Assembly: GCA_036845225.1 (NCBI GenBank)
Contig: DAIUEJ010000007.1
Coordinates: 6,578-70,577, forward strand
Length of the DNA: 64,000 bases
Reading direction: 5' to 3'
Source of the DNA: Candidatus Anoxymicrobiaceae bacterium
GTDB lineage: Bacteria > Actinomycetota > Geothermincolia > Fen-727 > Anoxymicrobiaceae
The position numbers were made by a program, and so were the translations under genes. Below, piece after piece: positions 9,849 to 34,460 of the stretch (position 1 is its first letter; every line of letters starts with the position of its first letter). The notes below the pieces were generated by a model, which searched no databases, had not been told where the DNA came from, and worked only from the letters and a program-made list of their open reading frames with translations.

Positions 9849-9880
9849 CTAAACTTCTTGGGGTCAGACCCCTTTTTGTA
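9849..9880. repeat. GGGGTCAGACCCC palindromic element
   Basis: CTAAACTTCTT-GGGGTCAGACCCC(9860-9872)-TTTTTGTA. Confidence 0.9.
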
Positions 9881-10483: not shown

Positions 10484-10510
10484 AAAAAGGACCCGACCCC
10501 AGGAAGTTAA
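10478..10510. repeat. Palindromic element variant GGACCCGACCCC
   Basis: CTTAAGAAAAA-GGACCCGACCCC-AGGAAGTTAA; near-identical to the 13248-13277 copy and to the reverse complement of 46778-46810. Confidence 0.85.
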
Positions 10511-11163
10511 GCGTCTCGCTGGGCTATTTCAAGGGCTTTCTTGTCGAGCTGCTCGGAGTATTCCTTCCATGTCGACATGTCTTCGGCGCTCCCGCGGAAG
10601 ATCACAAAGCGGCACGTTTCCGCGCCCGCGGGGATCGTCTGGGTGAAGCGAACCTGCCAGTCCATCCAGCCCAGCTCTTTCGCCGCGTCGAGCATTCCCT
10701 GGACGAAGTTCCTCTGGACGCGGCAGTCGAAGGCACTGTAGCAGTCCTGGTGCGGGCACCAGATGATGTGGAAGCTGACCTCGTCCTCGGAGTCGATGCT
10801 CGGCTCCTCGAGCGACGCGTAAGCGATACGGTTGATGACGGTCGCGAAGAAGCTGGCGAGCTCCGCCTCGGTGAGCCCCTCCGGCCTCTCGAGCCCGTCG
10901 AGCATCTGCCTGCCGACGTCCAGGCCCACCTTCCTTATGGCTTCGCAGACGACTCGCTGCCCGTCCTCGCCGAATTCGCGCTCGCACGCCTTGAGTATGC
11001 CTATCACCGCCATGGCCTGCATGGTCCCCCATTGCCAGAGCACGGCGGGGTCGAAGTCGGTCTTACCCAGGACCTCCTCGCGAAGCCGTGCCACGCCCTC
11101 GGCATACGGCTGGTTGAACTCGAATTCTTTCCAGGCGGGCTCGTCGCGGCGCTCCCAGTGCAT
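10507..11163 (-). CDS. V4R-like / ATC-hydrolase-like protein
   Basis: WCPHQDCY...DCRVQRNFVQG and FTQTIPAGAETCRFVI; GGAG SD before ATG 11163. Confidence 0.7.
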   Translation of the reverse strand: MHWERRDEPAWKEFEFNQPYAEGVARLREEVLGKTDFDPAVLWQWGTMQAMAVIGILKACEREFGEDGQRVVCEAIRKVGLDVGRQMLDGLERPEGLTEAELASFFATVINRIAYASLEEPSIDSEDEVSFHIIWCPHQDCYSAFDCRVQRNFVQGMLDAAKELGWMDWQVRFTQTIPAGAETCRFVIFRGSAEDMSTWKEYSEQLDKKALEIAQRDA

Positions 11164-11205
11164 TGCAGGACTCCTTCTCTGATGCCGATGCGCGTAAATC
11201 ATCGA

Positions 11206-11283: not shown

Positions 11284-11314
11284 TGCAAAATAAAGGTTTG
11301 ACCCCTATTTTGCA
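11284..11314. repeat. Palindromic element variant overlapping the fadD stop codon
   Basis: TGCAAAATA-AAGGTTTGACCCC-TATTTTGCA with 9-bp inverted arms. Confidence 0.8.
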
Positions 11315-13104
11315 GGCTGCTGGTATTGCGCCTCGATCTCCTCGCCGAACGTGTCCACGACGATCCGGCGCTTGAGCTTCAGCGTCTGCGTCAGCATCCC
11401 GTTCTCGAGCGTGAAATCCTCTGTGAGGAAGACGAACTTCTTGGGTATCTCGTAGGAGCCGTACGTGCCCTTGAGGGCATCTTTCACCTGCTTCTCGATG
11501 GCGTCCTGGACGGCCTTGTCCTTCGCCAGCACGGCGGGCTCCTTCCCCTCGGCGCCCTCGACGTGCTTCGGGAGCACCTCGAAGTCGGGGACCAGCAGGC
11601 AGATGTTGTACTCCTTGCCCTCACCGAAGATCATGCAGTTGGCGACAAGGGGCAGGAGCTTTATCTCTTCCTCGATGGAGCTCGGGAACACGTACTTGCC
11701 GTTCAGCAGCTTGTACTGCTCTTTCAGCCGCCCCGTCACCTTGAGATATCCGTCGTTATCCAGCCTGCCGCGGTCGCCGGTCCTGAAGCCGCCGTCCGGC
11801 GTCATGACTTCGGCGGTCGCCTCGGGCTTGTTGTGATAGCCCTTCATGACGTTGGGCCCGTAGACGATGATCTCGCCGTCATCAGCGCCCTCATCCACCA
11901 CCGAGTTGTCTATGACTATCCGGCAGTTGGGGATCGCCGAGCCGACAGTCCCGATCTTGTTCTTGCCCGGCCGGTTCATGGTGGCCCCCGGCGACGTCTC
12001 GGTCAGGCCGTAGCAGTCGTAGGTCGGGATGCCCAGGTCGGAGAAGAAGTAGGCGATCTCGGGGTTCATCATCGCGCTGCCGGTGACCGCGCCCTTCAAG
12101 CGGCCGCCGAACTTATCGCGTATCTTCTTGAAGACTATCTTATCGGCGAGGTTGTACTTGACGTTGACCCACATGCTCGTCTTGCCCTGCTCAGCCAGCT
12201 CGCGCTTCTTCTTGCCGGCCTCGACCCCCATCACGAACAGCTTTCGCGGCAGGCCGCCGTCCTCGTCCATCTTCGCCCAGAGGCCGTCGTAGACCCTGTT
12301 GAAGATGCGCGGGACCGCGATAAGGAAGGTCGGCTCCGTCTTCCCAAGGTCTTCCACGACCGTCTGCGGGCTCTCGACCAGCCCCAGCGAGCCACCGATG
12401 TAGATGTAGTTGTTGAGGTCGGCGGTCTGGCCGAATGAGTGTGCCCACGGCAGGATCGAGAGGCTGCGGTCCTCCTCGTTGAGGTCGGGGAAACAGGCGC
12501 CGCAGTCGACGACGTTGGAGGTCAGGTTCCCGTGCGACAGCAGGACGCCCTTAGGCTCGCCCGTGGTGCCCGAGGTGTAGATGAGAAGAGCGATGTCGTC
12601 GGGGCCCGCCGGCTTGACGGACGGGACGGGCTTCTCGCGTCCCTTGCGCTCCAGGTCGGCCATTGTGTTCGGTCCGTCGCCCTCGATCAGGTACAGCTTC
12701 AGGCCCGGGAAGTCTGAGGCGAACCCCTCGACCTTCTCGAGCAACTCCGGCTTGGAGATGAACAGCGCCTTTATCCCGCTGTCGCCGATGATGTACTTCC
12801 AGGTGCTCTCGAGCTCGGCTTCGTACATGGGGATGAAGCGCGCGCCAAGACTGTAAGTCGCGTAAGCGATTATCGCCCACTCGACCCTGTTGTTAGCGAT
12901 GATCCCGACGCAGTCGCCTTTTCCGAAGCCATCTGCGGCCAGTCCGCCGCGCAGGTCGTCGACGCGCTTCGCCACCTCGGCGTAGGTGACCCACTCGTAC
13001 TCGCCGGCCTTGTTCTTGGTCCCGAAGAGCTTGTTTGACCCGTGTTTGGCCACACTGCGCTCGAACATGTCAACGAGGTTGTCCGGCCTGTCGTCACTGC
13101 TCAT
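11305..13104 (-). CDS. fadD: Long-chain fatty acid--CoA ligase (FadD/AMP-dependent synthetase)
   Basis: YTSGTTGEPKG, YGLTETSP, FRTGDRG, TGRLKE...GKYVFP and LTQTLKLKRR. Confidence 0.92.
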   Translation of the reverse strand: MSSDDRPDNLVDMFERSVAKHGSNKLFGTKNKAGEYEWVTYAEVAKRVDDLRGGLAADGFGKGDCVGIIANNRVEWAIIAYATYSLGARFIPMYEAELESTWKYIIGDSGIKALFISKPELLEKVEGFASDFPGLKLYLIEGDGPNTMADLERKGREKPVPSVKPAGPDDIALLIYTSGTTGEPKGVLLSHGNLTSNVVDCGACFPDLNEEDRSLSILPWAHSFGQTADLNNYIYIGGSLGLVESPQTVVEDLGKTEPTFLIAVPRIFNRVYDGLWAKMDEDGGLPRKLFVMGVEAGKKKRELAEQGKTSMWVNVKYNLADKIVFKKIRDKFGGRLKGAVTGSAMMNPEIAYFFSDLGIPTYDCYGLTETSPGATMNRPGKNKIGTVGSAIPNCRIVIDNSVVDEGADDGEIIVYGPNVMKGYHNKPEATAEVMTPDGGFRTGDRGRLDNDGYLKVTGRLKEQYKLLNGKYVFPSSIEEEIKLLPLVANCMIFGEGKEYNICLLVPDFEVLPKHVEGAEGKEPAVLAKDKAVQDAIEKQVKDALKGTYGSYEIPKKFVFLTEDFTLENGMLTQTLKLKRRIVVDTFGEEIEAQYQQPAK

Positions 13105-13225
13105 GATGCACCCCCAGGGCTAGAACGAGTCTTTCAACGTAGTGATATCGTCATCCGGCTCAAAGATTATAACCTGCCAGGCAAGGGCGCCACACGGGTC
13201 ACGCGGTCGGTCGGGATGCTCAAGT

Positions 13226-13277
13226 GGGGTCTGACCCCGGTGGCGCACTTAAGGAAAAGGACCTGACCCCGGAAAGT
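13226..13277. repeat. Two palindromic elements in tandem
   Basis: GGGGTCTGACCCC (13226-13238)-GGTGGCGCA and GGACCTGACCCC (13259-13270). Confidence 0.9.
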
Positions 13278-13413
13278 AAAGTGAAGTTTCCTTTGCCCGG
13301 CTGGCGGGGAGTTGGTAAGATAATCCTAGGCAGCATGGGGGCGACGGAGCATTCACCGGCGACGCGCGTCCCTCGCCACTAAGTGGCTGGTCACCTGATA
13401 AGGGAGGAATACG

Positions 13414-13974
13414 ATGGCCCCAAAGTACGGTACTGACGAATGGGAGAGCGCCTACCAGGCTTTTCTGGCGGAGAGGACGAAAGACGGCCCTCCGTACATC
13501 TACTTCACGCCCGAGTGGGCGGCCCTGTACGAGAAGACGATCCAGAACGATGAGGCGTACCGGGACGCGGCAAAGACGTGGGAAGGCACTGTTGTGCTGC
13601 ACGTCGAGGCTGCCCCCGAGTTCGGCCTCGAATTCGACCTCTTCGTCTTCATGGACCTCTGGCACGGCGAGTGCCGCTCGATCAGGATCGTGCCCACGGA
13701 CGCCGGCGAGGCGGGCGATTTCGTGATCAGCGGTTCACTCGAGCGCTGGACCCAGGTCGCCAAGAAAGAGCTCGACAGCACCAAGGGCATGATGCAGGGC
13801 AAGCTGAAGCTCAAGGGCGACCTCCCGACGATCGTACGCGCGGTGAGGGCGTCCCAGCGCCTGACCGACCTGAGCGCCGACGTCGGCGGGTTCTTCCCGA
13901 CCGAGCTCGAAGCCGCGAAGGTTCAGGAGCTCAGGGCCGTAATGAATGATTTCAAGGACAAGGTGCTCGGCTAG
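13414..13974 (+). CDS. SCP2 sterol-carrier domain protein
   Basis: WEGTVVL...DLWHGECR...GDFVISGSLERW...MMQGKLKLKGDL. Confidence 0.85.
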   Translation: MAPKYGTDEWESAYQAFLAERTKDGPPYIYFTPEWAALYEKTIQNDEAYRDAAKTWEGTVVLHVEAAPEFGLEFDLFVFMDLWHGECRSIRIVPTDAGEAGDFVISGSLERWTQVAKKELDSTKGMMQGKLKLKGDLPTIVRAVRASQRLTDLSADVGGFFPTELEAAKVQELRAVMNDFKDKVLG

Positions 13975-14082
13975 AACACGGCACCAGTCAAAATAATGTG
14001 AGGCGGACATGGGCAACCCGTGTGCCCGCTCGACGGACCGGGTTGCAGCCCATGCCGGCATCACCATCAAAGGGAGGTATAC

Positions 14083-15246
14083 ATGGCGTACGATCGAGAT
14101 CTTGCCTTCATCTACAGGAACCCGACCAAGATCGTCTTTGGCGAGAACACCGTAAATGACGCGGGCATAGAGGTGTCCGAGCTCGGCTGCAGCAAGGCGT
14201 TTATTGTGACCGATCCCGGCGTGGTGGCGGCCGGACTGGTAGAGAGAGTCCAGAAGGCGCTCGGGTCGAAGTTCGTCGGCATCTACGACAAGTGCATCCA
14301 AGACTCCGGCGTGCACATCATCAATGAGGCGTCCGCGCTCGCAAAAGAGGCCGGCGCCGACTGCCTCGTCAGCGTCGGCGGGGGCAGCACCATCGACACG
14401 GCCAAGGGCATGGCCGTCCTCATCAAGGAGGGTGGCAAGCTGGAGGACTACGCCGGCTTCCAGCTCCTGACCCGGCCCCAGACACCGCACGTAGTTGTGC
14501 CGACCACGGCCGGGACCGGCAGCGAGGCCACCATGACGGCGGTCGTCAAGGACTGGGACAGGCACCAGAAGATGCTCTTCTCAGACACCAACATGATCCC
14601 GAACGTAGGGATACTCGACCCGACGATAGTGGCCGGGCTTCCTAAGGGATTGACGGCGACCACGGGCATGGACGCGTTCACGCACGGGGTAGAATCGATA
14701 CATACACTCCAGGCGTCGCCCATCGCCGACGCGATGGCTCTCCAGTCCATCAGGCTGATCTACGAGAACCTCCCGAAGTGCGTCGAGGACGGCAGCGACC
14801 TGCTCGCGCGGGGACAGCAGCAGTGCGGGGCTACCATGGCGGGAATCGCGTTCGATAACGCGCAGGTGGGCCTGCCGCACGCGCTCGCGCATTCTCTCGG
14901 CGGGCTTTTCAAGGTGCCTCACGGGCTCGCCAACAGCATCGTGCTTCCGTACAGCATGCAGTTCAACCTGGAGGAGTCCGCCGACCGCTACGCGCTCATC
15001 GCGCGGGTGATGGGCCTGGACGTAAAAGGCATGAGCGACGTGGAGGCGGGACAGGCGGCGATAGACGCGGTCTTCGCGTTTACCAAGAAGCTCGGTATCC
15101 CGCAGAAGCTGAGCGAAGCGGGAGTGCCGGAGGAAGGGCTGATCGAGGTCGCGGAGCTCGCGCTCTCCGATGGCGCGATAGTCTACAACCCGACGCTTAT
15201 CTTCGAGACCGACCAGATAATGGAAGTGTTGAAGGCTGCGTACTAG
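14083..15246 (+). CDS. Iron-containing alcohol dehydrogenase
   Basis: GGGSTID, PTTAGTGSE, DAFTH, and GLPHALAH...HGLAN metal ligands; GGAGG SD before ATG 14083. Confidence 0.93.
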   Translation: MAYDRDLAFIYRNPTKIVFGENTVNDAGIEVSELGCSKAFIVTDPGVVAAGLVERVQKALGSKFVGIYDKCIQDSGVHIINEASALAKEAGADCLVSVGGGSTIDTAKGMAVLIKEGGKLEDYAGFQLLTRPQTPHVVVPTTAGTGSEATMTAVVKDWDRHQKMLFSDTNMIPNVGILDPTIVAGLPKGLTATTGMDAFTHGVESIHTLQASPIADAMALQSIRLIYENLPKCVEDGSDLLARGQQQCGATMAGIAFDNAQVGLPHALAHSLGGLFKVPHGLANSIVLPYSMQFNLEESADRYALIARVMGLDVKGMSDVEAGQAAIDAVFAFTKKLGIPQKLSEAGVPEEGLIEVAELALSDGAIVYNPTLIFETDQIMEVLKAAY

Positions 15247-15280
15247 ACCTTCCAGGAATGAACAATGACCAGGGGGTAAC

Positions 15281-15703
15281 ATGAGCGAGCCCAATATCGA
15301 ACTGGCGCCGGACGTGGAGCCCGGCATGGCTTCCATGCTGGCGGACATGATAAAGACAAACCTGAAGGACAAGCCCGACAGGATGAAGGACTTCAACAAG
15401 CTGGAGGGGACGATCTGGATAACCGCGGAGGACGCGGAGACCGAGATGACGATGGTCTTCGAGAGCGGGAAGCTGACGGTCCACTCCGGCAAGATCGGCA
15501 AGCCGATACTTGAGATAACCACCGACGCTTCGACACTGATGGACCTCGCCAACATCGACATCAAGATGGGGATGCCCTACTACTTCGACGAGACCGGGCG
15601 CATGGTCATCAAGAAGCTCCTCAAGAAAGAGCTGAAGATCAAAGGCATGTTCGCCCACAACATGGCACTGACGCGGATGACTAAGATCATGTCGGTCAAG
15701 TAG
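15281..15703 (+). CDS. SCP2-like domain protein
   Basis: 140 aa; ...TMVFESGKLTV...ILEITTDASTLM...KKLLKKELKIKG, an SCP2-type C-terminus. Confidence 0.6.
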   Translation: MSEPNIELAPDVEPGMASMLADMIKTNLKDKPDRMKDFNKLEGTIWITAEDAETEMTMVFESGKLTVHSGKIGKPILEITTDASTLMDLANIDIKMGMPYYFDETGRMVIKKLLKKELKIKGMFAHNMALTRMTKIMSVK

Positions 15704-15741
15704 GCCCGAGAAGCCAGGCCCTTACGATCGGAGGACGTACG

Positions 15742-17604
15742 ATGTTCGGAAACACCGGCAAGGTGCTGGAAGTCGACTTGAGCTCCGGGCAGATCGAGAC
15801 GCTCGAGCTCGAGGAAGACATCTACAAGAAGTACATCGGTGGAGTGGGTCTGGCGGCAAAGCTGCTGTTCGACCGTGGCAACCTCGATGCGGACCCCCTG
15901 GACCCCGACACGCTGCTGATATTCGCCACGGGGCCGATGGCCGGCACGGGCATGTACGGCACGAGCCGCTTCTCGGTCGGCGCCCGCTCGCCTCTGACCG
16001 GCATCTGGGGGCAGGCGAGCTGCGGGGGAAACTTCGGGCCCGAGCTCAGCAGGTGCGGCTACGACGCGGTGATATTCAAAGGCAAGGCGGACAAGCCTGT
16101 CAGCCTCGTCATCGGTGACGAGACCGCCGAGATCGTGGACGCGGGCGACCTCTGGGGCAAGGACGTCTACGAGACGACGGACATCCTCAAGGAGAAGTAC
16201 GGCAAGCAGGAGAAGATACTCGCCATCGGCCCGGCGGCCGAGAACGGAGTCCTCTTCGGCAGCATCACCAACGATTACGGGCACCACTTCGGCCGCGCCG
16301 GCATGGGCACCGTGATGGCTTCCAAGAACCTCAAGGCGATAGCCGCGAAGGGCGACATGAAATCCGAGTTCGCGGACCCGGAGGGGTTCAAAGAGTTCTG
16401 GCAGAACACCGTCCGACCGCAGATCGAGGAGAATATCTTCTGCAATGCGCTCAAGGCTTTCGGCACCGCCGCGAACATGGAACTGAAGATGATGGAGGGC
16501 GACGTCCCGACCAGGAACTGGTCGGTCGGCTCGTGGATGGAAGGGCCGGAAACCCTGAGCGGTATCACTATGGCCGACACCATCAGGACGGACACCGCCT
16601 CATGCCGGGGTTGCGCAGTGAAGTGCAAGCCTGTGGTCAAGGTCGATGAAGGTCCCTATCAGACGCCCGAGGGACCGGGGCCGGAGTACGAGACGATCGG
16701 GACCTTCGGAACCATGATGATGAACCCGAGCCTGGAGGCCGTTGCGAAGGCGAACGACCTCTGCAACCGCCTGGGGATGGACACCATGACCTGCGGCTCG
16801 ACCATCGCGTGGGCGATGGACTGCTACGAGGCGGGCATCCTCAAGCCCGAAGATTACGACGGGATCAAGCTCGAGTTCGGCGACATCGACACGCCGCTGG
16901 CCCTGCTTCCAAAGATAGCCGCGAAGGAAGGGAAGCTCGCGCAACTGCTCGCCATGGGCTCCCGCAAGGCATCCACGGAGATAGACGCCGGCAGCGAGAA
17001 GTTCCTCACCGACAGCAAAGGGCTGGAGGCCGCGATGCACGACCCGCGATGCAACTGGGGCGACGGGCTCGCCTACGCGGTCTCGGTGCGCGGCGCGTGC
17101 CACGTCTCGAACGTGACCTTCCTCTGGGAGTGGGGCGCGATCGAGTACCCGGAGGTCGGGCTGGACATGCTCTTCCAGGCGCAGTCGGCCGAGCACAAGG
17201 CGTTCGGCACGGCGGTGACCACGGACATGGGCTCTATCTTCAACTCGGCGTGCTGGTGCGAGTTCCCCGGGGCGAGCCTGACGCTGACCCAGTGGGTTGA
17301 GGCGTTCAACCTGGTCGCGGGGTACGGCTACGACATCGACTCGATGATGGAAGCGGCCGCGCGCGTGTGGTTCCTGCAGCGCGCCCTCGGCAACATCTGG
17401 GGCGCGACCGGTGAGGACGACCGGATAGGCGAGAGGATCATGACGCCCGTGGACGACGGCATGATTGCCGGCTCGGTGCCCGACATGGAGACCATGCTCA
17501 AGGAGTTCTACGAGCTGCGCGGACTCTCCGCCGACGGCCGCCCTACTCGCGAGGCGCTGGCGAAGTACGGCCTCGAGGACGTCGCCGAGAAGCTCGGGGT
17601 CTGA
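15742..17604 (+). CDS. aor: Aldehyde:ferredoxin oxidoreductase family (tungstopterin)
   Basis: SPLTG, GRAGMGTVMASKNLKAI, CRGCAVKC, PEYET, GMDTMTCG and RGACH. Confidence 0.92.
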   Translation: MFGNTGKVLEVDLSSGQIETLELEEDIYKKYIGGVGLAAKLLFDRGNLDADPLDPDTLLIFATGPMAGTGMYGTSRFSVGARSPLTGIWGQASCGGNFGPELSRCGYDAVIFKGKADKPVSLVIGDETAEIVDAGDLWGKDVYETTDILKEKYGKQEKILAIGPAAENGVLFGSITNDYGHHFGRAGMGTVMASKNLKAIAAKGDMKSEFADPEGFKEFWQNTVRPQIEENIFCNALKAFGTAANMELKMMEGDVPTRNWSVGSWMEGPETLSGITMADTIRTDTASCRGCAVKCKPVVKVDEGPYQTPEGPGPEYETIGTFGTMMMNPSLEAVAKANDLCNRLGMDTMTCGSTIAWAMDCYEAGILKPEDYDGIKLEFGDIDTPLALLPKIAAKEGKLAQLLAMGSRKASTEIDAGSEKFLTDSKGLEAAMHDPRCNWGDGLAYAVSVRGACHVSNVTFLWEWGAIEYPEVGLDMLFQAQSAEHKAFGTAVTTDMGSIFNSACWCEFPGASLTLTQWVEAFNLVAGYGYDIDSMMEAAARVWFLQRALGNIWGATGEDDRIGERIMTPVDDGMIAGSVPDMETMLKEFYELRGLSADGRPTREALAKYGLEDVAEKLGV

Positions 17605-17635
17605 CCACGGGTCGAGCCTCACAAGAGAGAAAGCC

Positions 17636-17911
17636 TTGAAGGTGCACGTCCGCTATGTCGGCCTGTTCGCGAAATACGTGGGCGAGCGGGAAAGAGACTT
17701 CGATCTGCCCGACGGCGCCACCGCGGACGACCTCCTCGGGCGGCTTGCTGACCAGTACAGGGAAACCCTCCCCGAAAGCTTCATGGACAAAGAGACCGGC
17801 CGGCTGCACAAGAGCGTCCGCCTGGCCGCCACCAGCGGCGCGATCGGACCGGAACAAGAGCTCAACGATGGCGACAACCTACTCGTATTGTTCACCCTCG
17901 CCGGCGGCTGA
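17636..17911 (+). CDS. MoaD/ThiS-family sulfur carrier
   Basis: Ubiquitin-like, about 91 aa, ends FTLAGG; follows aor; TTG/GTG start uncertain. Confidence 0.85.
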   Translation: MKVHVRYVGLFAKYVGERERDFDLPDGATADDLLGRLADQYRETLPESFMDKETGRLHKSVRLAATSGAIGPEQELNDGDNLLVLFTLAGG

Positions 17912-17973
17912 GTGTAAAACCGGTGCCAGGCACTTTCTTTTCACTTTGAAAAACGGGGGTCAGGCACTTTTTT
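17908..17973. repeat. Two palindromic element variants
   Basis: CTGAGTGTAAAACC-GGTGCCAGGCAC-TTTCTTTTCAC (36/37 identical to the reverse complement of 54553-54589), then AAAAAC-GGGGGTCAGGCAC-TTTTTT (matches 20716-20740). Confidence 0.9.
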
Positions 17974-23589: not shown

Positions 23590-23966
23590 TTCAATCCCCC
23601 CAACAGTCACGACAACTACCGATTGCGGCACATCCATCATTCGGCGCGGGGCCGGGCAATCCTGCGATGGCGCCGCAGGGGGGAAACCTTGACGTCCGTC
23701 ATGGAGCGACGATTTGCGCGCGGGTAGTATGCCGGTATGGAAAGAACGAGAAGGTGTACCAGATCACACGACGTAGACGGCCAGAAAAAGAATCTTCTCG
23801 TGAAGTAGGAGTCCGGATTTACAGGGTGAATAAAGCCCCAGAAGTAGAACCCGCGAACGCTAGAGACGACACCTGAGCAGACTTGTAGGCCAAGGTTTGC
23901 CGCTAGCGCTACGCAGGTCCGGTAAGTCAGGCACGTTTGTGCCAGGTTCAAAGGAGTTGGTTTTCC

Positions 23967-26900
23967 ATGCATCACTCGAGGAAACCCGCGACAAGGACGA
24001 TTGCCCCGATTCTCGCATTCCTTTTAGTTGCCGCCTTCTTCCTGGCAGGCGCGGGCCCGATCGCCGCGAAGCCGACGCCGGCCGCGCCGAAGGCTCAAAC
24101 GCAGCCGGCGGCCAACCCGGCGCAATCACCTGTGAGAACTCAGGACTCGAAACGCACAACGGCCGCGGACAGACAGGCCGCGGCGGACCGTGCGCAGGCT
24201 CAGGGACTGACACCGGGGGTGGCGAAGAGCGGCGGCGCGGTGCCGACGCCTGGAGGCGTACCTGACTACTTCGGCCCTTATCCTAACTACGCAAACAGCC
24301 CCCTGCCCACGGCGATTGCCGCGTTTCCTTATCCGACGTTCTACTTCGCTGAGGGCACGACCCGGCCGAATTTTGAGACTTACTTCACTATCCAGAACCC
24401 GGGCACCAAGACGGCAAACGTCAGGCTGACCTACATGAGAGGGAATGGCCAGAACGCAGTCGTTACTGTGGCTGTTCCAAAGAACACCAGGTCCACCATC
24501 AATCCGGTGAGCACCCTGGGCAGCGCGGACGATGCCGCTCACGACTTCAGCACCAAGGTCGAGTCCCTCAACAAAGTGCAGGTCATAGTCGAGCGCCCGA
24601 TGTATTTCAACTACAAGGGTGTCTGGACAGGCGGGTCCGACGCGGTGGGGGCAACCGCCACGGCGTCTGCGTTCTATTTCGCGGAAGGGACGTGCCGGCC
24701 CAACTTCGATGCTTACTTCACGATTCAGAACCCCGGAAACAATAACGCGATCATCCAGCTGACCTACATGAAGGGTGACGGCACAGTAGTCACGCAGGGC
24801 TTTGGCGTGACAGCCCATACGCGCGGAACGGTACACCCCGCGGACACGCTGGGGGTCGGCGACGACGCGGCCCATGACTTCAGCACATCGATAGTCTGCA
24901 CCAACGGTCAGAAGATAGTCGCCGAGCGGCCACAGTACTTCAACTACAAGGGGGTCTGGACCGGAGGCCACGACGTCGTAGGCGCCACGGCGGGCGCGAA
25001 GCAATACTACTTCGCGGAGGGCACCAGCCGGCCGAACTTCATCCCTTACCTCACGATACAGAACCCGAACGCGGGCTCGGTGCCCGTCAAGATAACCTAC
25101 TTCATGGCTGACGGAACGAGGAAAACGCAGAACATGACGCTCGCTCCTCATTCAAGAAGCACAGCCATTCCCTCGGACATCATAGGCTCGGGCGACGTAG
25201 GGCATGACTTCAGTTCAAAAGTCGAAAGCACGAACGGGAAGAACATCATCGTCGAGCGGCCGATGTACTTCAACTACAACAACGCCTGGACCGGCGGCTC
25301 GGACGTGATGGGCGCGACCGCTTCCGCGCCGGCATACTACTTCGCGGAGGGCACCAGCCGGCCCAACTTCGACCCGTATCTTTGCATACTCAACCCGGGA
25401 GACACGGTCGCCAACCTGACCATCACATACATGAAGGGTAACTCAACGACCTCGACTCAGCTCATTTCAGTGCCTGCTTTTTCGCGAGGTACAATCTCAA
25501 TTCGTGAGAAGACGGGGACCGGGAATGACGCGGCCCACGACTTCAGCATCCGTGCCGAGTGCACGAACGGCCAGCGGGTCATAGTCGAGCGGCCGATGTA
25601 CTTCAACTACAACGGCGTATGGAACGGCGGTCACGATGCGGTCGGGCTTGCCTATCAGGCGGTCGGCGTCCAGACGGGCACCGGCGTCAGGAAGTTCGTC
25701 GATTCGCTCCCCGGACTCGGGGCGGCGAACGCCAACGACCTCGGGCAGTATATCCCGGTGGCCGTTCCCGACAAGACGAGCTTCCCCGGCTCGGACTACT
25801 ACGAGATACAGCTCGGGCAGTACAGGGAAAAACTCCACAAAGACCTTCCGTCGACCTTGCTGCGCGGCTACCGGCAGACCAACAGCTCGAATCCATCCGT
25901 GACGAAGTTCAGCTACCTGGGGCCGACGATCATCGCCCAGAAGGGCCGCCCGGTGAGGGTCAAGTTCACGAACAGCTTGCCGACCGGCGCGGGAGGAAAC
26001 CTGTTCATCCCCGTCGATACGACGGTCATGGGCGCGGGAATGGGCCCTGATGGAGTGAACGGCTACACCGAGAACCGCGCGGTCATCCACCTTCACGGCG
26101 GTAACACCCCGTGGATCAGTGACGGGACCATGCACCAGTGGATCACTCCGGCCGGGGAGACCACGCCGTATCCCCAGGGAGTCAGCGTGCAGAGCGTCCC
26201 CGACATGCCCCAGCCGACGGTTGGAGACGGGACCGAGACGTTCTACTACACAAACCAGCAGAGCGCCAGGTTGATGTTCTACCACGACCATGCGTACGGG
26301 ATAACCCGCCTGAACGTCTATGCGGGCGAAGCGGCGCCCTATCTGCTGCAGGACTCGACCGAGACCTCGCTCATCAACAGCAAGTCCATCCCGGCCGACC
26401 AGATCCCCCTGGTGATCCAGGACAAGACCTTCGTACCCGCCCCGGCGCAGCTCGCGGCCGAGGACCCGACATGGGACACGAGCAAATACGGAGGCAAGGG
26501 CAACCTCTGGTTCCCGCACGTATACATGCCAAACCAGAATCCTGGTAGCATCGATGGCGCCAACGCAATGGGGCGCTGGGATTACGGCCCGTGGTTCTGG
26601 CCGCCGTTCACAGGGATCACCAACGGACCGGTCGCGAACCCCTACTACGATCCTGTCAACGCACCCTGGGAGCCGAAGGTGATTCCGGGGACGCCCAATC
26701 CATCGATAGTACCTGAGGGGTTCATGGATACGCCCCTGGTCAACGGGACCGCTTATCCCTACGTGAAGGTGGGGCCCAAGGCATACCGGTTCCGGATACT
26801 GAACGCCTCTAACGACCGTACACTCAACCTCCAGATGTACTTCGCGAAGTCGAACGGGCAGATGTGGAAGTCGAACGGGACGCTCACCGACGGCGATGCC

Positions 26901-29195
26901 GGCGAAGTCGCCATGGTGCCCGCGGTTCCCAACAACGGCCTGCCGGCCAGCTGGCCGACAGACGGCCGTGACGGAGGCGTGCCTGACCCGGCCTCGAGCG
27001 GACCGGCCATGGTGCAGATCGGCAACGAAGGGGGCTTCCTCCCGCAGGCGGCCGTACTGCCCAACACGCCGGTAGGATACATCTATAACCGCAGGGACAT
27101 CACGGTCCTGAACGTGTCCAACAAGACGCTGATGCTGGGGCCGGCCGAGAGGGCCGACGTCATCATCGACTTCTCCAAGATCCCCGACGGCACCAAGCTC
27201 ATCATGTACAACGACGCTCCGGCTCCGGTACCGGCGTTCGACCCGCGCATCGACTACTACACGGGCGGACCGGACCTGACCTCTTCAGGTGGAGCGCCCA
27301 CCACGCTTCCGGGCTACGGCCCGAACACGAGGACGGTCATGCAATTCCAGGTGTCCTCGAGCGTGAAGACCGGGATGACGGGATTCAACGTGAACACGCT
27401 GATGAACCACCTGCCGGCAGCCTACGCGACGTACCAGGAGAAGCCGATAGTGCCGAACGCGGCCTACAACGCGGCGTTTAACGCGGCCTACCCTGCCGAT
27501 TCCTACTCGAGGATCCAGGACACCACGAAGGACTTCTTCAATGGCCCGCTTGCCGGCCTTGCCGTGACGAACATGGGAAGCGGCTATACCTCGGCACCGG
27601 GAGTCAACATCACCGGAGGCGGAGGGACGGGCGCTACAGGAGTGTCCGAGATATCGGGTGTCACATCGATTGCGATAACCAACGGGGGGAGCGGCTATAC
27701 CGTTCCTCCGGACATCGGCTTCACTGGCGGAGGAGGCGGTTCGGGAGCCGCGGCTACCGCGCTGATCTCGGGTGTCACGGGATTCACCATTACGAACTTT
27801 GGAACGGGCTATACCTCGCCTCCTGATGTCACAATCACTGGCGGAGGCGGGTCGGGGGCCACCGCGGTCGCTACCGTGGCGAACGGGTCAATCACGGCTG
27901 TCAACCTCACGAACGGCGGCAGCGGTTACTCGACGCCACCGACCGTCACGTTCACAGGCGGGGGTATCGGCCCCAACGGCGCCGCCGCAACCGCCAATAT
28001 CGCGGTCGGCTCGGTTACGGGGATCATCATCACCGACTCGGGCGGCAACTACACGGTCGCGCCCGGTGTGGCCTTCTCCGGGGGCGGCGGCGGTATAAAC
28101 GCGGCCGCGAATGCGTCGATAACGGTGGGCGCGGTCACCTGGGTGAAACTCACCAACCCGGGCAACAACTACTCCTCGGCGCCAACTGTGGCGCTGTCCG
28201 GAGGAGGAGGCGCCAATGCCACGGCGGTAGCGTTGCCGATCCACATGGACCTGACGCCGAAGGCGATCCAGGAGCTGTTCGATCCGTTCTACGGGCGGAT
28301 GAACGCTCAGTTGGGTGTCGAAATACCCAACACTACGATGATCACGCAGACGACTATCCCATACTTCGATACCGATCCCCCGACGGAGCTCATCAAGAAC
28401 TCCGACGCGGCGCAGCCTATCGGCTCGCTGGCGGACGGGACCCAGATCTGGAAGATCACACATAACGGTGTGGACACGCACGCCATCCACTGGCACATGT
28501 TCAACGTCCAGTTGATCAACCGCGTCGGATGGGACGGAATGGTGAAACCGCCGGACGCGAACGAAGTCGGTTGGAAAGAGACCGTGCGGATGAACCCGCT
28601 CGAGGACGTGATCGTGGCTCTCAGGCCGATCAAGCCCAACATCCCGTGGGACATCCCTAACAGCATACGGTTGCTCGACCCGACGATGCCACTGAACAGC
28701 ACGATTAACTTCACGAGCATGGACCCGGCAGGTCAGCCCGCGCCAGTCCTCAACCACGAGATAAACTACGGCTGGGAGTACGTGTGGCACTGCCACCTGC
28801 TCGGCCACGAGGAGAATCTCATGATGCGCCCGATGTCCTTCGGAGAGGCGCCGATAGCGGCCAGCGGCCTGAGCGGCGCCGGACCGGCGGGCGGAGTCGC
28901 GCTCTCGTGGACCGACAACTCCAAGAACGAGACCAACTGGACGATCATGCGGTCAACGAGTCTGACCGGGCCGTTTGCCAAGATCGACCAGGTGGCATCG
29001 ACAACGGGGCCTGCCACAGGCGGGACGATAAACTACACCGACACCACGGCGGCAGCCGCGACGACTTACTACTACCAGATAATCGCAAACAACATCATCG
29101 GGGATACCACACCTTACACGGCGCCGGTCGTCGGGTATCCGAACATGTCGATGGATGCGACGGCGTCCAACACGGCGACGGTGGTCGTGCCCTGA
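23967..29195 (+). CDS. Very large secreted multicopper oxidase (OmpB/CotA-like) with 4 N-terminal ~111-aa repeats, 6 Gly-rich repeats and a C-terminal FN3-like domain
   Basis: Signal peptide; Cu motifs HLHG (~26088), YHDH (~26280), HAIHWH (~28479), WHCHLLGHEENLM (~28785); LSWTDNSKNET...YYYQI at the C-terminus. Confidence 0.92.
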   Translation: MHHSRKPATRTIAPILAFLLVAAFFLAGAGPIAAKPTPAAPKAQTQPAANPAQSPVRTQDSKRTTAADRQAAADRAQAQGLTPGVAKSGGAVPTPGGVPDYFGPYPNYANSPLPTAIAAFPYPTFYFAEGTTRPNFETYFTIQNPGTKTANVRLTYMRGNGQNAVVTVAVPKNTRSTINPVSTLGSADDAAHDFSTKVESLNKVQVIVERPMYFNYKGVWTGGSDAVGATATASAFYFAEGTCRPNFDAYFTIQNPGNNNAIIQLTYMKGDGTVVTQGFGVTAHTRGTVHPADTLGVGDDAAHDFSTSIVCTNGQKIVAERPQYFNYKGVWTGGHDVVGATAGAKQYYFAEGTSRPNFIPYLTIQNPNAGSVPVKITYFMADGTRKTQNMTLAPHSRSTAIPSDIIGSGDVGHDFSSKVESTNGKNIIVERPMYFNYNNAWTGGSDVMGATASAPAYYFAEGTSRPNFDPYLCILNPGDTVANLTITYMKGNSTTSTQLISVPAFSRGTISIREKTGTGNDAAHDFSIRAECTNGQRVIVERPMYFNYNGVWNGGHDAVGLAYQAVGVQTGTGVRKFVDSLPGLGAANANDLGQYIPVAVPDKTSFPGSDYYEIQLGQYREKLHKDLPSTLLRGYRQTNSSNPSVTKFSYLGPTIIAQKGRPVRVKFTNSLPTGAGGNLFIPVDTTVMGAGMGPDGVNGYTENRAVIHLHGGNTPWISDGTMHQWITPAGETTPYPQGVSVQSVPDMPQPTVGDGTETFYYTNQQSARLMFYHDHAYGITRLNVYAGEAAPYLLQDSTETSLINSKSIPADQIPLVIQDKTFVPAPAQLAAEDPTWDTSKYGGKGNLWFPHVYMPNQNPGSIDGANAMGRWDYGPWFWPPFTGITNGPVANPYYDPVNAPWEPKVIPGTPNPSIVPEGFMDTPLVNGTAYPYVKVGPKAYRFRILNASNDRTLNLQMYFAKSNGQMWKSNGTLTDGDAGEVAMVPAVPNNGLPASWPTDGRDGGVPDPASSGPAMVQIGNEGGFLPQAAVLPNTPVGYIYNRRDITVLNVSNKTLMLGPAERADVIIDFSKIPDGTKLIMYNDAPAPVPAFDPRIDYYTGGPDLTSSGGAPTTLPGYGPNTRTVMQFQVSSSVKTGMTGFNVNTLMNHLPAAYATYQEKPIVPNAAYNAAFNAAYPADSYSRIQDTTKDFFNGPLAGLAVTNMGSGYTSAPGVNITGGGGTGATGVSEISGVTSIAITNGGSGYTVPPDIGFTGGGGGSGAAATALISGVTGFTITNFGTGYTSPPDVTITGGGGSGATAVATVANGSITAVNLTNGGSGYSTPPTVTFTGGGIGPNGAAATANIAVGSVTGIIITDSGGNYTVAPGVAFSGGGGGINAAANASITVGAVTWVKLTNPGNNYSSAPTVALSGGGGANATAVALPIHMDLTPKAIQELFDPFYGRMNAQLGVEIPNTTMITQTTIPYFDTDPPTELIKNSDAAQPIGSLADGTQIWKITHNGVDTHAIHWHMFNVQLINRVGWDGMVKPPDANEVGWKETVRMNPLEDVIVALRPIKPNIPWDIPNSIRLLDPTMPLNSTINFTSMDPAGQPAPVLNHEINYGWEYVWHCHLLGHEENLMMRPMSFGEAPIAASGLSGAGPAGGVALSWTDNSKNETNWTIMRSTSLTGPFAKIDQVASTTGPATGGTINYTDTTAAAATTYYYQIIANNIIGDTTPYTAPVVGYPNMSMDATASNTATVVVP

Positions 29196-31769: not shown

Positions 31770-34460
31770 GTGGCAGGTACCTCTATCCGTATAAACGGCA
31801 AAAGGGTTTCAGCCTACCCGGGCTCAAGGATCATCGACCTCGCTTGCGACCTCGGCGTTCCGATTCCAACCTTGTGCGATCACCCGTTGCTTGCGCCCGC
31901 GGGCTACTGCGGAGTCTGCGTTGTCGAGGACATCGCGAGCGGCAGGCTCGTGACCGCGTGCGACACGCCCGCCAGGCCGGGCATGGATATCAGGACCGAC
32001 TCTCCCCGGGCCCTCGAGGCGCGAAGGCGGACTCTCGAGCTCATCCTCACCAACCACCCCGAGACCTGCGTCATCTGCGAGAAAGGAAACGCCTGCAGGC
32101 TCCGCGATCTTTCCTCGAGCATCGGGCTCGCGCTCTCGAGCGAGAAACGCGTCGGGACCCTGCGCGGGATAGTGGACGCGAACCCGTTCATCCACCGCGA
32201 CCTCTCTAAGTGCATAGGCTGCCAGATATGCGTACGCGCCTGCCGGGAGATACAGGGCGCCGAAGCCGTCGAGTTCACGGGGATCGGCACGGGCAGCATG
32301 CCCCTGACGGCGGAGGACCACGAGCTGGCGGGCTCGGATTGCGAGCTGTGCGGGCTCTGCGTCACCATGTGCCCTGTCGGCGCCCTGATCGAAAAGCCGA
32401 GCAAGCACACCGGTACTGAGGACAGGAGGGCGAACGTCATCTGCCCGTACTGCGGGGTCGGATGCACCCTCGAGCTGAGGATCCGTGAGGACGCGATAGT
32501 CAGCGTGGGAGCGGGCGTCGAGGGCTCGGTCAACGGCCCGAGCCTGTGTGCCAAGGGCAGATACGGGCTGGGTTACGTCGGACACCCCGACCGGCTGAAG
32601 GTGCCCCTGGTACGCGAAGGCGACGAGCTCGTCGAGACGACGTGGGAGGAAGCACTGTCGCGCGTGGCGGCGAACCTGCATCGCATGGTCAAGGATCACG
32701 GCCCCGACTCTGTAGGCGTGCTGGCGTCGGCAAAAGCGACCAACGAGGAGAACTACCTCATCCAGAAATTCGCCCGCGCCTGCATCGGCACCAACAACGT
32801 CGACCACTGCGCGAGGTTGTGACACAGCCCCACCGTCGCCGGTCTGGCGGCAGCGTTCGGCAGCGGAGCCATGACCAATTCGCTCGAGGACCTTGCGGAC
32901 GCCGACGTCATCCTGCTCACAGGTAGCAACACCATCGAGAACCATCCCGTCATCGCGCAGATGATCAAGACCGCTGTCCTGTCGGGCGGCACCCGGCTCA
33001 TCGTGAGCGACCCGAGGGACATCTCGATGGCACGATACGCCGAGGTGAGGCTCAGCCCGAGGCCCGGAACGGACGTCGCATGGCTCAACGGGATGGCCAA
33101 CGTGATATTGAGCGAGGGGCTGGCCGACGAGCGCTTCATACGGGAGCGCACCGAGGGCTCCGACGGGTGGCGCAAGTCGGTGGAGCGCTATACCCCCGAG
33201 TTCGTGCAGAAGATAACGGGCATCAAGCCCGCGGACTTACGAAAGGCGGCTCGCCTCTACGCGTCGGCCGGCGCGGCCGCGATCTACTACGCCATGGGCA
33301 TCACCCAGCACTCGACGGGCACCGATAACGTCAAGGCGATCGCAAACCTCGCGATGCTCACGGGCAACATCGGCAGGCCGGGCACGGGAGTCAACCCGTT
33401 GCGCGGCCAGAACAACGTGCAGGGCGCCTGCGATATGGGCGCGCTGCCCAACGTCTTCCCCGGCTACCAGCGGGTCGACGATGACGTGGTCCGGGGCAAG
33501 TTTGAGAAAGCCTGGGGCGTGAAGCTCCCCTCGAAGCCGGGGCTCACCGTAACCGAGATGATTGGTGCCGCCGCCAAGGGCAAGCTCAAGGCAATGTACA
33601 TCGTCGGAGAGAACCCGGTGCTGACCGAGCCGGACGCAAACCATGCCGTCGCGGCTCTCGGAAAGCTCGACTTCCTCGTCGTCCAGGACATATTCCTCAC
33701 CGAAACGGCGGCTCTCGCCGACGTTGTGCTGCCCGGTGCGGCCTCGGTTGAAAAGGAAGGGACCTTCACCAACACGGAGCGCATGGTCCAGAGGTCGCGC
33801 GCGGCCGTGCCCGCTCCCGGAGAGGCGCGCAGCGATGCCGACATAATCTGCGCCGTCGCGGGCCAGATGAAGTGCGCCATGACCTGCGGCAGTCCCTCGG
33901 ACGTCATGGACGAGATAGCTTCTCTCACGCCTTCGTACGGCGGCATGTCTCACAGCCGGCTTGCGCGGCACGGCATGCGCTGGCCGTGCCCTGATGCAAA
34001 GCACCGCGGCACAAGGATAATGCACTCGCGCGAGTTCACCCGCGGCAAGGGCAGGTTCCATCCCATCGACTACATCGAGCCGGCAGAGATGCCGGACGTC
34101 GATTACCCGTTGATCCTGACCACGGGCAGGATGCTCTACCAGTATCACTCGGGCTCGATGTCGCGCCGCTCGGCCGCGCTGGACGAATACACTCCGGCCG
34201 GCTGGGCTGAGCTGAACCCGAGCGATGCCAGGAGGCTGGGCATACGAGAGGGCGAACCCATCGCTCTGACCTCGCGGAGAGGCTCGGTCCGCACGACCGC
34301 CAGGCTGAGCCGCCGCTCTCCGAAGGGGGTCGTCTTCATGAGCTTCCACTTCGCCGAGGAGGCGGTCAACAAGCTTACGAATCCAGCTCTCGACAAAGAG
34401 GGAAAGATACCTGAGTTCAAGGTCTGCGCGGTCAAGGTCGAGCCTGCCGCGCGCGAGTGA
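31770..34460 (+). CDS. fdhA: Selenocysteine-containing formate dehydrogenase alpha subunit (N-terminal 2Fe-2S/4Fe-4S plus Mo/W-bisPGD domain)
   Basis: In-frame TGA at 32820-32822 in DHCARL-U-HSPTVAGL; the two track ORFs join in frame; CPYCGVGC, RGQNNVQGACDMG and PEFKVCAV motifs. Confidence 0.93.
32823..32856 (+). promoter_or_regulatory. Bacterial SECIS element
   Basis: Hairpin GTCGCC-GGTCT-GGCGGC (32835-32851) 12 nt after the UGA, as in fdhF-type SECIS elements. Confidence 0.85.

Follow-up and report, generated by a model that had tools for sequence, protein, structure and literature searches.

Two stand-alone SCP2-fold proteins bracket an alcohol dehydrogenase in a conserved gene module, here followed by a predicted tungsten aldehyde:ferredoxin oxidoreductase

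Why would two proteins with the fold of sterol carrier protein 2 (SCP2) be encoded on either side of an alcohol dehydrogenase (ADH), in an operon that continues with an aldehyde:ferredoxin oxidoreductase (AOR)? The question is raised by a locus of Candidatus Anoxymicrobiaceae bacterium (assembly GCA_036845225.1), contained in a 64,000-nucleotide stretch, hereafter the window, that corresponds to positions 6,578-70,577 of contig DAIUEJ010000007.1. Genes were called from a listing of open reading frames (ORFs) together with Pfam and NCBIfam scans, and coordinates are those of the window unless a locus is named. The plus strand carries, in order, SCP2a, an iron-type ADH (Fe-ADH), SCP2b, the AOR and a small MoaD-like protein, with an acyl-CoA ligase gene (fadD) divergent on the minus strand; all six genes listed, with their coordinates, in an original prediction made from the letters of this DNA are thus present. 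The closest homologues are found in metagenome-assembled genomes (MAGs) of Geothermincolia/Anoxymicrobiaceae (Actinomycetota). Our reading, held with about as much belief as doubt, is that the operon allows a primary alcohol of low solubility to be oxidised anaerobically, via the aldehyde, to the carboxylic acid, with SCP2a-ADH-SCP2b as its core.

A genome scan with SCP2a yielded 78 loci, in which the window proteins were then located by tblastn. Among the 43 loci that are well flanked (at least 2.5 kb upstream and at least 4.5 kb downstream of SCP2a), an ADH or AOR gene lies beside SCP2a in 41, and the full set of Fe-ADH, SCP2b and AOR is found in 26, counts in which the loci are not phylogenetically independent. 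The hosts belong to Actinomycetota, Desulfobacterota (Smithella, Desulfatiglandales and Desulfobacterales), Spirochaetota and Bacillota, with Chloroflexota contributed by a second scan, and the module is present in at least six bacterial phyla. Two gene orders occur, SCP2a-ADH-SCP2b-AOR and AOR-SCP2a-ADH-SCP2b. The ADHs at the other loci share 57-87% identity with the window Fe-ADH. For the SCP2-linked AORs, pairwise comparison with the window enzyme gives 36-63% identity, rising to as much as 84% in close relatives. Unbiased clustering of the neighbouring ORFs of the 78 loci revealed no other widely shared gene, the recurring extras being acyl-CoA ligases (18/78 loci), GMC oxidoreductases (7 loci) and MoaD-like genes. 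Neighbours that might name a substrate were also sought, and none recur beyond ADH, AOR, SCP2b, ligase, GMC and MoaD-like genes. Across phyla, no gene accompanies the ADH more constantly than the SCP2 genes, and the linkage that the original prediction had noticed at one locus is conserved. Anoxymicrobiaceae/Geothermincolia MAGs can contain two to three paralogous SCP2a loci per genome (L008/L011 in PMDX01; L009/L010/L013 in DATCGY01; L004/L005), and at L004/L005 the second SCP2a copy is convergent, just past the MoaD-like gene.

The bracket persists when the enzyme within it changes. At about 57 Actinomycetota/Thermus loci a zinc-type ADH (Zn-ADH) stands in place of the Fe-ADH. The Actinomycetota form is a trio SCP2a-ZnADH-SCP2b, with overlapping stop and start codons at L075, and its third gene is homologous to the window SCP2b (hhalign, 99%). 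Since homologous SCP2a and SCP2b genes enclose either an Fe-ADH or a Zn-ADH, SCP2a-ADH-SCP2b is the invariant core, with or without AOR, and the dehydrogenase superfamily is interchangeable. In Actinomycetota MAGs (L101-L158) the trio is set in a conserved string of genes for ATP synthase beta and epsilon, a MurA-like protein and a CAAX protease, followed after the trio by those for a 199-residue unknown protein, a PrsW protease, MeaB and methylmalonyl-CoA mutase (MCM).

The same partners are also found joined in one chain. A full-library profile search retrieved about 450 SCP2a-family clusters (50% identity) at E ≤ 1e-10. The natural fusion P0355 (717 residues) consists of SCP2a, Fe-ADH and SCP2b, is present on two contigs from two samples, and has a C-terminal domain that matches the SCP2b profile with 98% probability; in P0402, SCP2a is fused to the N-terminal domain of a Zn-ADH. 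Of the computational evidence, the tri-domain fusion is what most strongly suggests that SCP2a, ADH and SCP2b act as one physical unit. Together with the overlapping genes it points, as an indirect sign in both cases, to a putative physical association with the partner enzymes. In P0411, P0455 and P0386, SCP2a-family proteins are fused to a Ribonuc_red_sm (R2-like di-iron) domain, possibly a further lipid-enzyme partnership. Adjacency by chance, without functional meaning, has in its favour no more than the general point that gene order is shared among related genomes. It is opposed by conservation across phyla with rearranged order, non-orthologous displacement of the enzyme inside the bracket, and the fusion proteins; because of the synteny and the fusions, we regard chance as excluded for practical purposes.

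What the SCP2 proteins might contribute depends on what they are. SCP2a (13414..13974, plus strand, 186 residues) is a long-form SCP2 with a DLWHGxC motif (D81, H84, C87). It matches PF02036 at 2e-13, with 51 bits against a gathering score of 21.3, and its profile match to T. thermophilus TT1886/TTHA0401 (1WFR, 2CX7) reaches 5e-27 at 37% identity. The AlphaFold2 (AF2) model has a mean predicted local distance difference test (pLDDT) score of 95.3 and is superposed by Foldseek on 2CX7 with a template modelling (TM) score of 0.89 and a root-mean-square deviation of 1.5 Å. The next fold matches are eukaryotic SCP2, the SCP2L domain of MFE-2 (1IKT), UbiJ, mosquito SCP2 with a C16 fatty acid, and SCP2 domains of alkylsulfatases. 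By profile, fold and DLWHGxC motif, SCP2a is a member of the Thermus-type SCP2 subfamily (2CX7).

SCP2b (15281..15703, plus strand, 140 residues) is a second, very divergent SCP2-fold protein. It matches PF02036 at 1e-5, its 26.2 bits lying just over the gathering score of 21.3, and its homologues mostly carry the annotation 'hypothetical'. Its AF2 model (pLDDT 89.2) finds its best fold match in the SCP2 domain of UbiJ (TM 0.72-0.74). The top Foldseek matches of the SCP2a and SCP2b models are all SCP2 proteins or domains, and on these models we are confident that both proteins adopt SCP2 folds, with a lipid-binding cavity predicted. The possibility that the two are recent paralogues was rejected: their profile-profile match is insignificant and only the fold is held in common. 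A candidate SCP2b-like gene in Thermus, the 136-residue gene downstream of the Zn-ADH, likewise proved unrelated to SCP2b.

The long-form SCP2a of the window has an additional helix at each end, spanning residues 8-24 at the N-terminus and 167-185 at the C-terminus, that the short form is without. The long form is found at 56 loci with AOR and 14 without, and the short form at 6 with AOR and 82 without, counts that are not phylogenetically independent. Because the long form tracks AOR linkage, there is a hint that the terminal helices are candidate AOR-docking elements.

The DLWHGxC motif is conserved across all variants, with D81 present in 79/79, H84 in 76/79 and C87 in 78/79 sequences, alongside an invariant W35, Y49, W56 and W112. 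The Thermus SCP2 shares the motif, and in the secondary structure of the SCP2a model the His and Cys flank a β-hairpin turn. The original prediction had treated both SCP2 proteins as lipid carriers; the carrier fold holds for both, whereas a purely passive role fits poorly with this Asp/His/Cys motif, which had been missed. It is conceivable that Asp81, His84 and Cys87 form a covalent thiohemiacetal with the aldehyde, or a thioester with an acyl group, for transfer between the ADH and the AOR or the ligase, making SCP2a a covalent shuttle and SCP2a-ADH-SCP2b a channelling machine. Aldehydes are thiol-reactive, and such a role would agree with the near-invariance of the three residues in every variant and in the Thermus protein, and with their modelled position about the hairpin turn. 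The motif might, however, just as well serve as a binding site for a head group, a metal or a partner protein, and with a free-aldehyde oxidase (AOR) present a covalent route is unneeded; we consider covalent transfer quite improbable.

Between the two SCP2 genes lies the Fe-ADH (14083..15246, plus strand; Fe-ADH 4e-45, ADH_Fe_C 3e-56), an iron-type NAD(P) alcohol dehydrogenase whose translation displays a GGGSTID nucleotide motif and the metal-ligand motifs DAFTH, LPH and PHG. The AOR follows SCP2b (15742..17604, plus strand; AFOR_N 3e-77, AFOR_C 3e-103). Its similarity to 9mqx, 9g7j and P. furiosus 1aor extends along the whole protein (1e-103 to 2e-93), and its CRGCAVKC (C-x2-C-x3-C), GPEYE and GACHV (CH(V/I)) motifs, covering three cluster cysteines, align with their 1aor equivalents; from this similarity it is predicted to be a tungsten aldehyde:ferredoxin oxidoreductase. 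Since no AorA/AorC-type genes were found next to the window AOR, it is of the single-subunit type, in the archaeal-type AOR clade. Smithella-type loci encode a second Fe-ADH (35-37% identical) and AOR (31-32%) pair, free of SCP2 genes, 2-4 kb downstream of the SCP2-bracketed cluster (L043 12362-15544, L047 13295-16476, L049 12442-15624).

The operon ends with a small MoaD/ThiS-like protein (17636..17911, plus strand), which gives weak ThiS and moaD_arch matches. We call it MoaD-like, not MoaD, because both family scores fall below cut-off (ThiS, 19 bits against 22.5; TIGR01687 moaD_arch, 28.4 bits against 49.5). Its C-terminus reads LAGG followed by the stop codon, giving the Gly-Gly end. TTG 17636 is the likely start, rather than 17465, and yields 91 residues, within the family size of about 90. 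A MoaD-like gene after the AOR is conserved in L001, L002, L004-L007, L032, L079 and L166-L169. MoaD-like aorD/aorE genes also follow the AOR gene in Aromatoleum aromaticum, where they are putative tungsten-cofactor maturation factors (PMC6365974), and the protein encoded here is a probable factor of the same kind. A terminator-like hairpin with a T-run (17922..17934, plus strand) marks the operon end.

In which direction would such a pathway run? The divergent gene (11305..13104, minus strand; AMP-binding 9.5e-76, plus AMP-binding_C_3) encodes an AMP-forming acyl-CoA ligase of the ACSL/FadD11-like kind; its best NCBIfam names are FadD11 (267 bits) and long-chain-fatty-acid--CoA ligase, scores that are far below the cut-offs (950). 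The original prediction had made this gene part of the system. It is indeed present and retained in the close relatives L166-L169, whose SCP2a is 87% identical; beyond these, a 33%-identical paralogue occurs in L006/L007, and fadD is local to the lineage and not general to the module. Also on the minus strand, 3' of fadD and in the same orientation, is a gene for an ATC_hydrolase-like protein with no role assigned (10507..11202; PF14196 at 26 bits, below the gathering score of 28.1), with an 86%-identical orthologue in the same fadD operon of L166/L167. The fadD operon of L166-L169 is longer, with an extra 268-residue protein, a carboxylesterase fragment and a GMC gene, all three of which the window is without; only fadD and the ATC_hydrolase-like gene are retained here. 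At L166 (1053-7228) and L167 (243-6417) the genes are fadD, a 268-residue protein with no family match, the ATC_hydrolase-like gene, a short COesterase fragment, a 151-residue protein and a GMC oxidoreductase.

A more direct coupling of AOR to ligase is seen in Desulfobacterales/Desulfatiglandales, in which the variant consists of a GMC oxidoreductase, SCP2a, AOR and an acyl-CoA ligase, with no ADH. AOR and ligase abut or overlap in L054, L073 and L162, and the best scores of the ligase are to long-chain-fatty-acid--CoA ligase models. GMC oxidoreductases of three unrelated subfamilies adjoin SCP2a in three lineages, those of Geothermincolia and Actinomycetes being generic and 23-28% identical to the Desulfobacterales enzyme. 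Because of this low identity, and because the SCP2-linked AORs are divergent, the association between SCP2 and enzymes seems, from sequence comparison, to have been assembled more than once. An assignment of the GMC as cholesterol oxidase was rejected, because resemblance to the ChoxAB model is confined to the Desulfobacterales GMC, which scores 590 bits against a cut-off of 850; we make no sterol claim. In Desulfatiglandales, a small SCP2/Alkyl_sulf_C-type protein of 108-117 residues is encoded within a few kb of the GMC-SCP2a-AOR-ligase cluster (L162 17013-17366, L163 9657-9983) and may substitute for SCP2b.

A link to lipid catabolism comes from Thermus, where the SCP2 gene abuts the Zn-ADH gene in ten genomes. 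TTHA0401-TTHA0400 is listed among the FadR-repressed operons of T. thermophilus, alongside β-oxidation genes and acyl-CoA ligases; there is a FadR site at its promoter, and the two genes, tabulated as a hypothetical protein and a zinc-binding dehydrogenase, are derepressed 3.1-fold and 2.6-fold in a fadR mutant (PMC5597230). We found no further literature on TTHA0401/TTHA0400 besides that report. Taken together, the operon coupling of AOR and ligase, the GMC flavoenzymes beside SCP2a and the reported FadR co-regulation lead us to favour the oxidative direction; for the window itself, that direction would follow by analogy and from the divergent fadD.

Read in this direction, the operon suggests the following scheme. 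SCP2a and SCP2b would dock on the ADH, and their lipid-binding cavities would accommodate the hydrophobic substrate as well as the aldehyde, which is both hydrophobic and reactive, much as has been proposed for UbiJ, an aid to the soluble enzymes of ubiquinone synthesis. The Fe-ADH would oxidise the alcohol to the aldehyde with NAD(P)+, and the tungsten AOR would pull this unfavourable step by converting the aldehyde irreversibly to the acid, reducing ferredoxin. The MoaD-like protein would serve maturation of the AOR cofactor, and the divergent ACSL-type ligase would activate the acid to acyl-CoA for β-oxidation. The association itself is robust; what we infer are the substrate, the direction and the mode of action, namely complex formation in this organism, a lipid-like substrate, oxidation as the direction of flux, and a hand-over role for the SCP2 proteins. 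Chain length, a sterol as opposed to an acyl substrate, wax as the source, and the SCP2 ligand belong with these.

A number of observations weigh against this reading. The best-scoring models for the Fe-ADH are short-chain enzymes (lactaldehyde reductase, ErcA, 1,3-propanediol and methanol dehydrogenases), the AOR belongs to a broad-specificity AOR clade, and neither sequence has a mark of long-chain specificity, their nearest named relatives being short-chain or broad-range. A non-specific lipid carrier has no need of the near-invariant polar Asp81/His84/Cys87 cluster. The adjacency of fadD is limited to close relatives, and at L079-L081 a 4HBT thioesterase is divergent from SCP2a, where fadD would be, an arrangement that suits the reverse direction. 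The Actinomycetota Zn-ADH trio is surrounded by housekeeping genes (atp operon, murA, MeaB/MCM), a setting more in keeping with constitutive function than with a catabolic island. Finally, the non-independent loci behind the synteny counts come nearly all from MAGs without attached physiology; in a search for cultured isolates with the cluster, the source-named matches among those listed were MAGs, and many matches were unnamed. The original prediction had put forward a route for long-chain or sterol-like alcohols and aldehydes in place of the usual short-chain role, and this idea is borne out in part: the FadR fatty-acid-degradation regulon of the Thermus homologue (PMC5597230), the GMC-SCP2a-AOR-ligase variant and the SCP2 folds speak for a lipid route, whereas the Fe-ADH and AOR carry no long-chain mark.

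These observations lend themselves to two further explanations. In the first, AOR and ADH would form a conventional short-chain system, and the SCP2-like proteins would bind no lipid but act as ADH subunits with a structural, assembly or regulatory function. The small or broad substrates of the nearest named ADH and AOR relatives, the polar motif of SCP2a, and an SCP2b that barely reaches the Pfam threshold and has mostly hypothetical homologues would all be accommodated. However, the SCP2 fold is predicted confidently for both proteins, with lipid-bound carriers among the structures matched, and a role in assembly tied to one ADH fold is hard to square with a two-protein bracket that encloses ADHs from two unrelated superfamilies. 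The reported Thermus FadR regulation and ligases scoring best on long-chain models also count against a short-chain system, and the Smithella-type second Fe-ADH-AOR pair without SCP2 suggests that the SCP2 pair adds a distinct capability. We therefore consider a short-chain system unlikely.

The second explanation is reverse flux, in which reduced ferredoxin would drive the AOR from acid to aldehyde and the ADH would continue to the alcohol, as an electron sink or to provide alcohols from which wax esters or ether lipids are made; the SCP2 proteins would carry the lipids. Acid reduction by AOR plus ADH is established in acetogens and hyperthermophiles, and the window holds Wood-Ljungdahl-type genes (a selenocysteine formate dehydrogenase and MetF/MetV). 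The L079-L081 thioesterase could release free acid for such a route, and the housekeeping setting of the Actinomycetota Zn-ADH trio would suit a biosynthetic role. Set against this, oxidation is indicated by the GMCs that adjoin SCP2a and by operons in which AOR is coupled to an AMP-forming acyl-CoA ligase; co-regulation with degradation genes is reported for the Thermus operon, and fadD is divergent here. Reverse flux thus appears rather improbable to us.

The region between fadD and SCP2a (13105..13413) contains a palindrome (13183-13250) resembling repetitive extragenic palindromic (REP) elements, together with the SCP2a ribosome-binding site; its last ~130 nt are conserved with L166-L168. 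AAGGGAGG stands 5' of the SCP2a ATG at 13414, and the Fe-ADH probably starts at ATG 14083, behind AAGGGAGG, rather than at GTG 14020. The inverted repeat was considered as a specific operator of the fadD/SCP2a region and rejected, as it is a genome-wide REP-like element. Its core, GGGGTCWGACCCC, is found in intergenic positions at 9860, 13226, 20769, 21113, 42246, 61506, 61559 and 63718, and is extended to TGCGCCACYGGGGTCWGACCCCGGTGGCGCA or to a terminator-like form with an A-run and a T-run; the 11-mer core gives 19 matches against 2.2 expected.

Elsewhere in the window, a formate dehydrogenase alpha subunit (31770-34460, plus strand) combines a NuoG-like Fe-S N-terminus with molybdopterin domains and has one in-frame TGA (32820-32822), within CARL-[TGA]-HSPTVAG, the usual selenocysteine position; a NuoF-like gene and then MetV/MetF lie downstream. 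A 1752-residue ORF (23937-29195, plus strand) has coding-like GC content at third codon positions and no Pfam match at E ≤ 1e-5. An 839-residue protein (49202-51721, minus strand), unusually long for the enolase superfamily, has as its sole Pfam match an Enolase_C TIM-barrel segment (residues 393-586).

If the oxidative lipid reading is correct, a widespread orphan family (about 450 clusters), including a Thermus protein whose structure was released in 2004-2005, would gain a function. The reading would also extend the UbiJ idea, that of a lipid chaperone for soluble enzymes, to catabolic redox enzymes, and could be useful in AOR-based biocatalysis of fatty alcohols and aldehydes. Little is known about the way in which strict anaerobes deal with alcohols and aldehydes that are long-chain, insoluble in water and reactive, such as arise from waxes, ether lipids, phytol and hydrocarbon degradation, and the module occurs in lineages of peat, groundwater, the deep subsurface and sediment (Geothermincolia, Smithella, Desulfatiglandales). 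It represents a concrete, expressible set of four or five proteins.

How does the module compare with known systems? Its nearest counterpart is TTHA0401 (2CX7/1WFR) with TTHA0400 of Thermus thermophilus HB8, an SCP2 of the same subfamily as SCP2a encoded immediately upstream of an ADH. It differs in being a 130-residue short form without the terminal helices, in the Zn-type ADH, in the lack of AOR and of a detected SCP2b, and in its aerobic host. In ubiquinone biosynthesis, UbiJ/UbiT are stand-alone SCP2-fold accessory proteins; the proposal is that they keep hydrophobic intermediates available to the soluble enzymes of a complex (PMC9499169). UbiJ, like SCP2b, is a stand-alone SCP2 fold and is its best structural match; in contrast to SCP2b, it has hydroxylase and methyltransferase partners, a polyprenyl quinone precursor as ligand and no ADH/AOR context, and identity is 13-15%. 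In MFE-2/HSD17B4, the SCPx thiolase and the alkylsulfatases SdsA1/Pisa1, an SCP2 module is joined to an enzyme acting on long alkyl chains, the same logic as in the P0355 fusion, and the SCP2 models match 1IKT and the C-terminal domains of alkylsulfatases, including a dodecanol complex. Those enzymes act on acyl-CoA or alkyl sulfate substrates with one SCP2 domain each, whereas here two divergent SCP2 proteins flank an ADH.

For the redox enzymes, P. furiosus AOR (1AOR) and the acetogen AOR route share with this locus an AOR with the conserved motifs and an ADH encoded alongside; no SCP2 partners turned up in those systems. AorABCDE of Aromatoleum aromaticum has MoaD-like genes after the AOR, as here, and differs by its three subunits, including AorA and AorC. 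In aerobic alkane degraders, AlkJ-AlkH-AlkK combine a flavin alcohol dehydrogenase, aldehyde oxidation and an acyl-CoA synthetase. This is the chemical logic of the GMC-SCP2a-AOR-ligase variant, from which the aerobic system differs by an NAD-dependent aldehyde dehydrogenase instead of AOR, no SCP2, and its aerobic hosts. A search of open-access text for literature linking SCP2 (sterol carrier protein) with AOR, tungsten, Smithella or fatty alcohols returned nothing relevant, and we found no description of the arrangement itself. The families are all known; what seems new is a stand-alone SCP2 pair that brackets an ADH, usually with an AOR in anaerobes.

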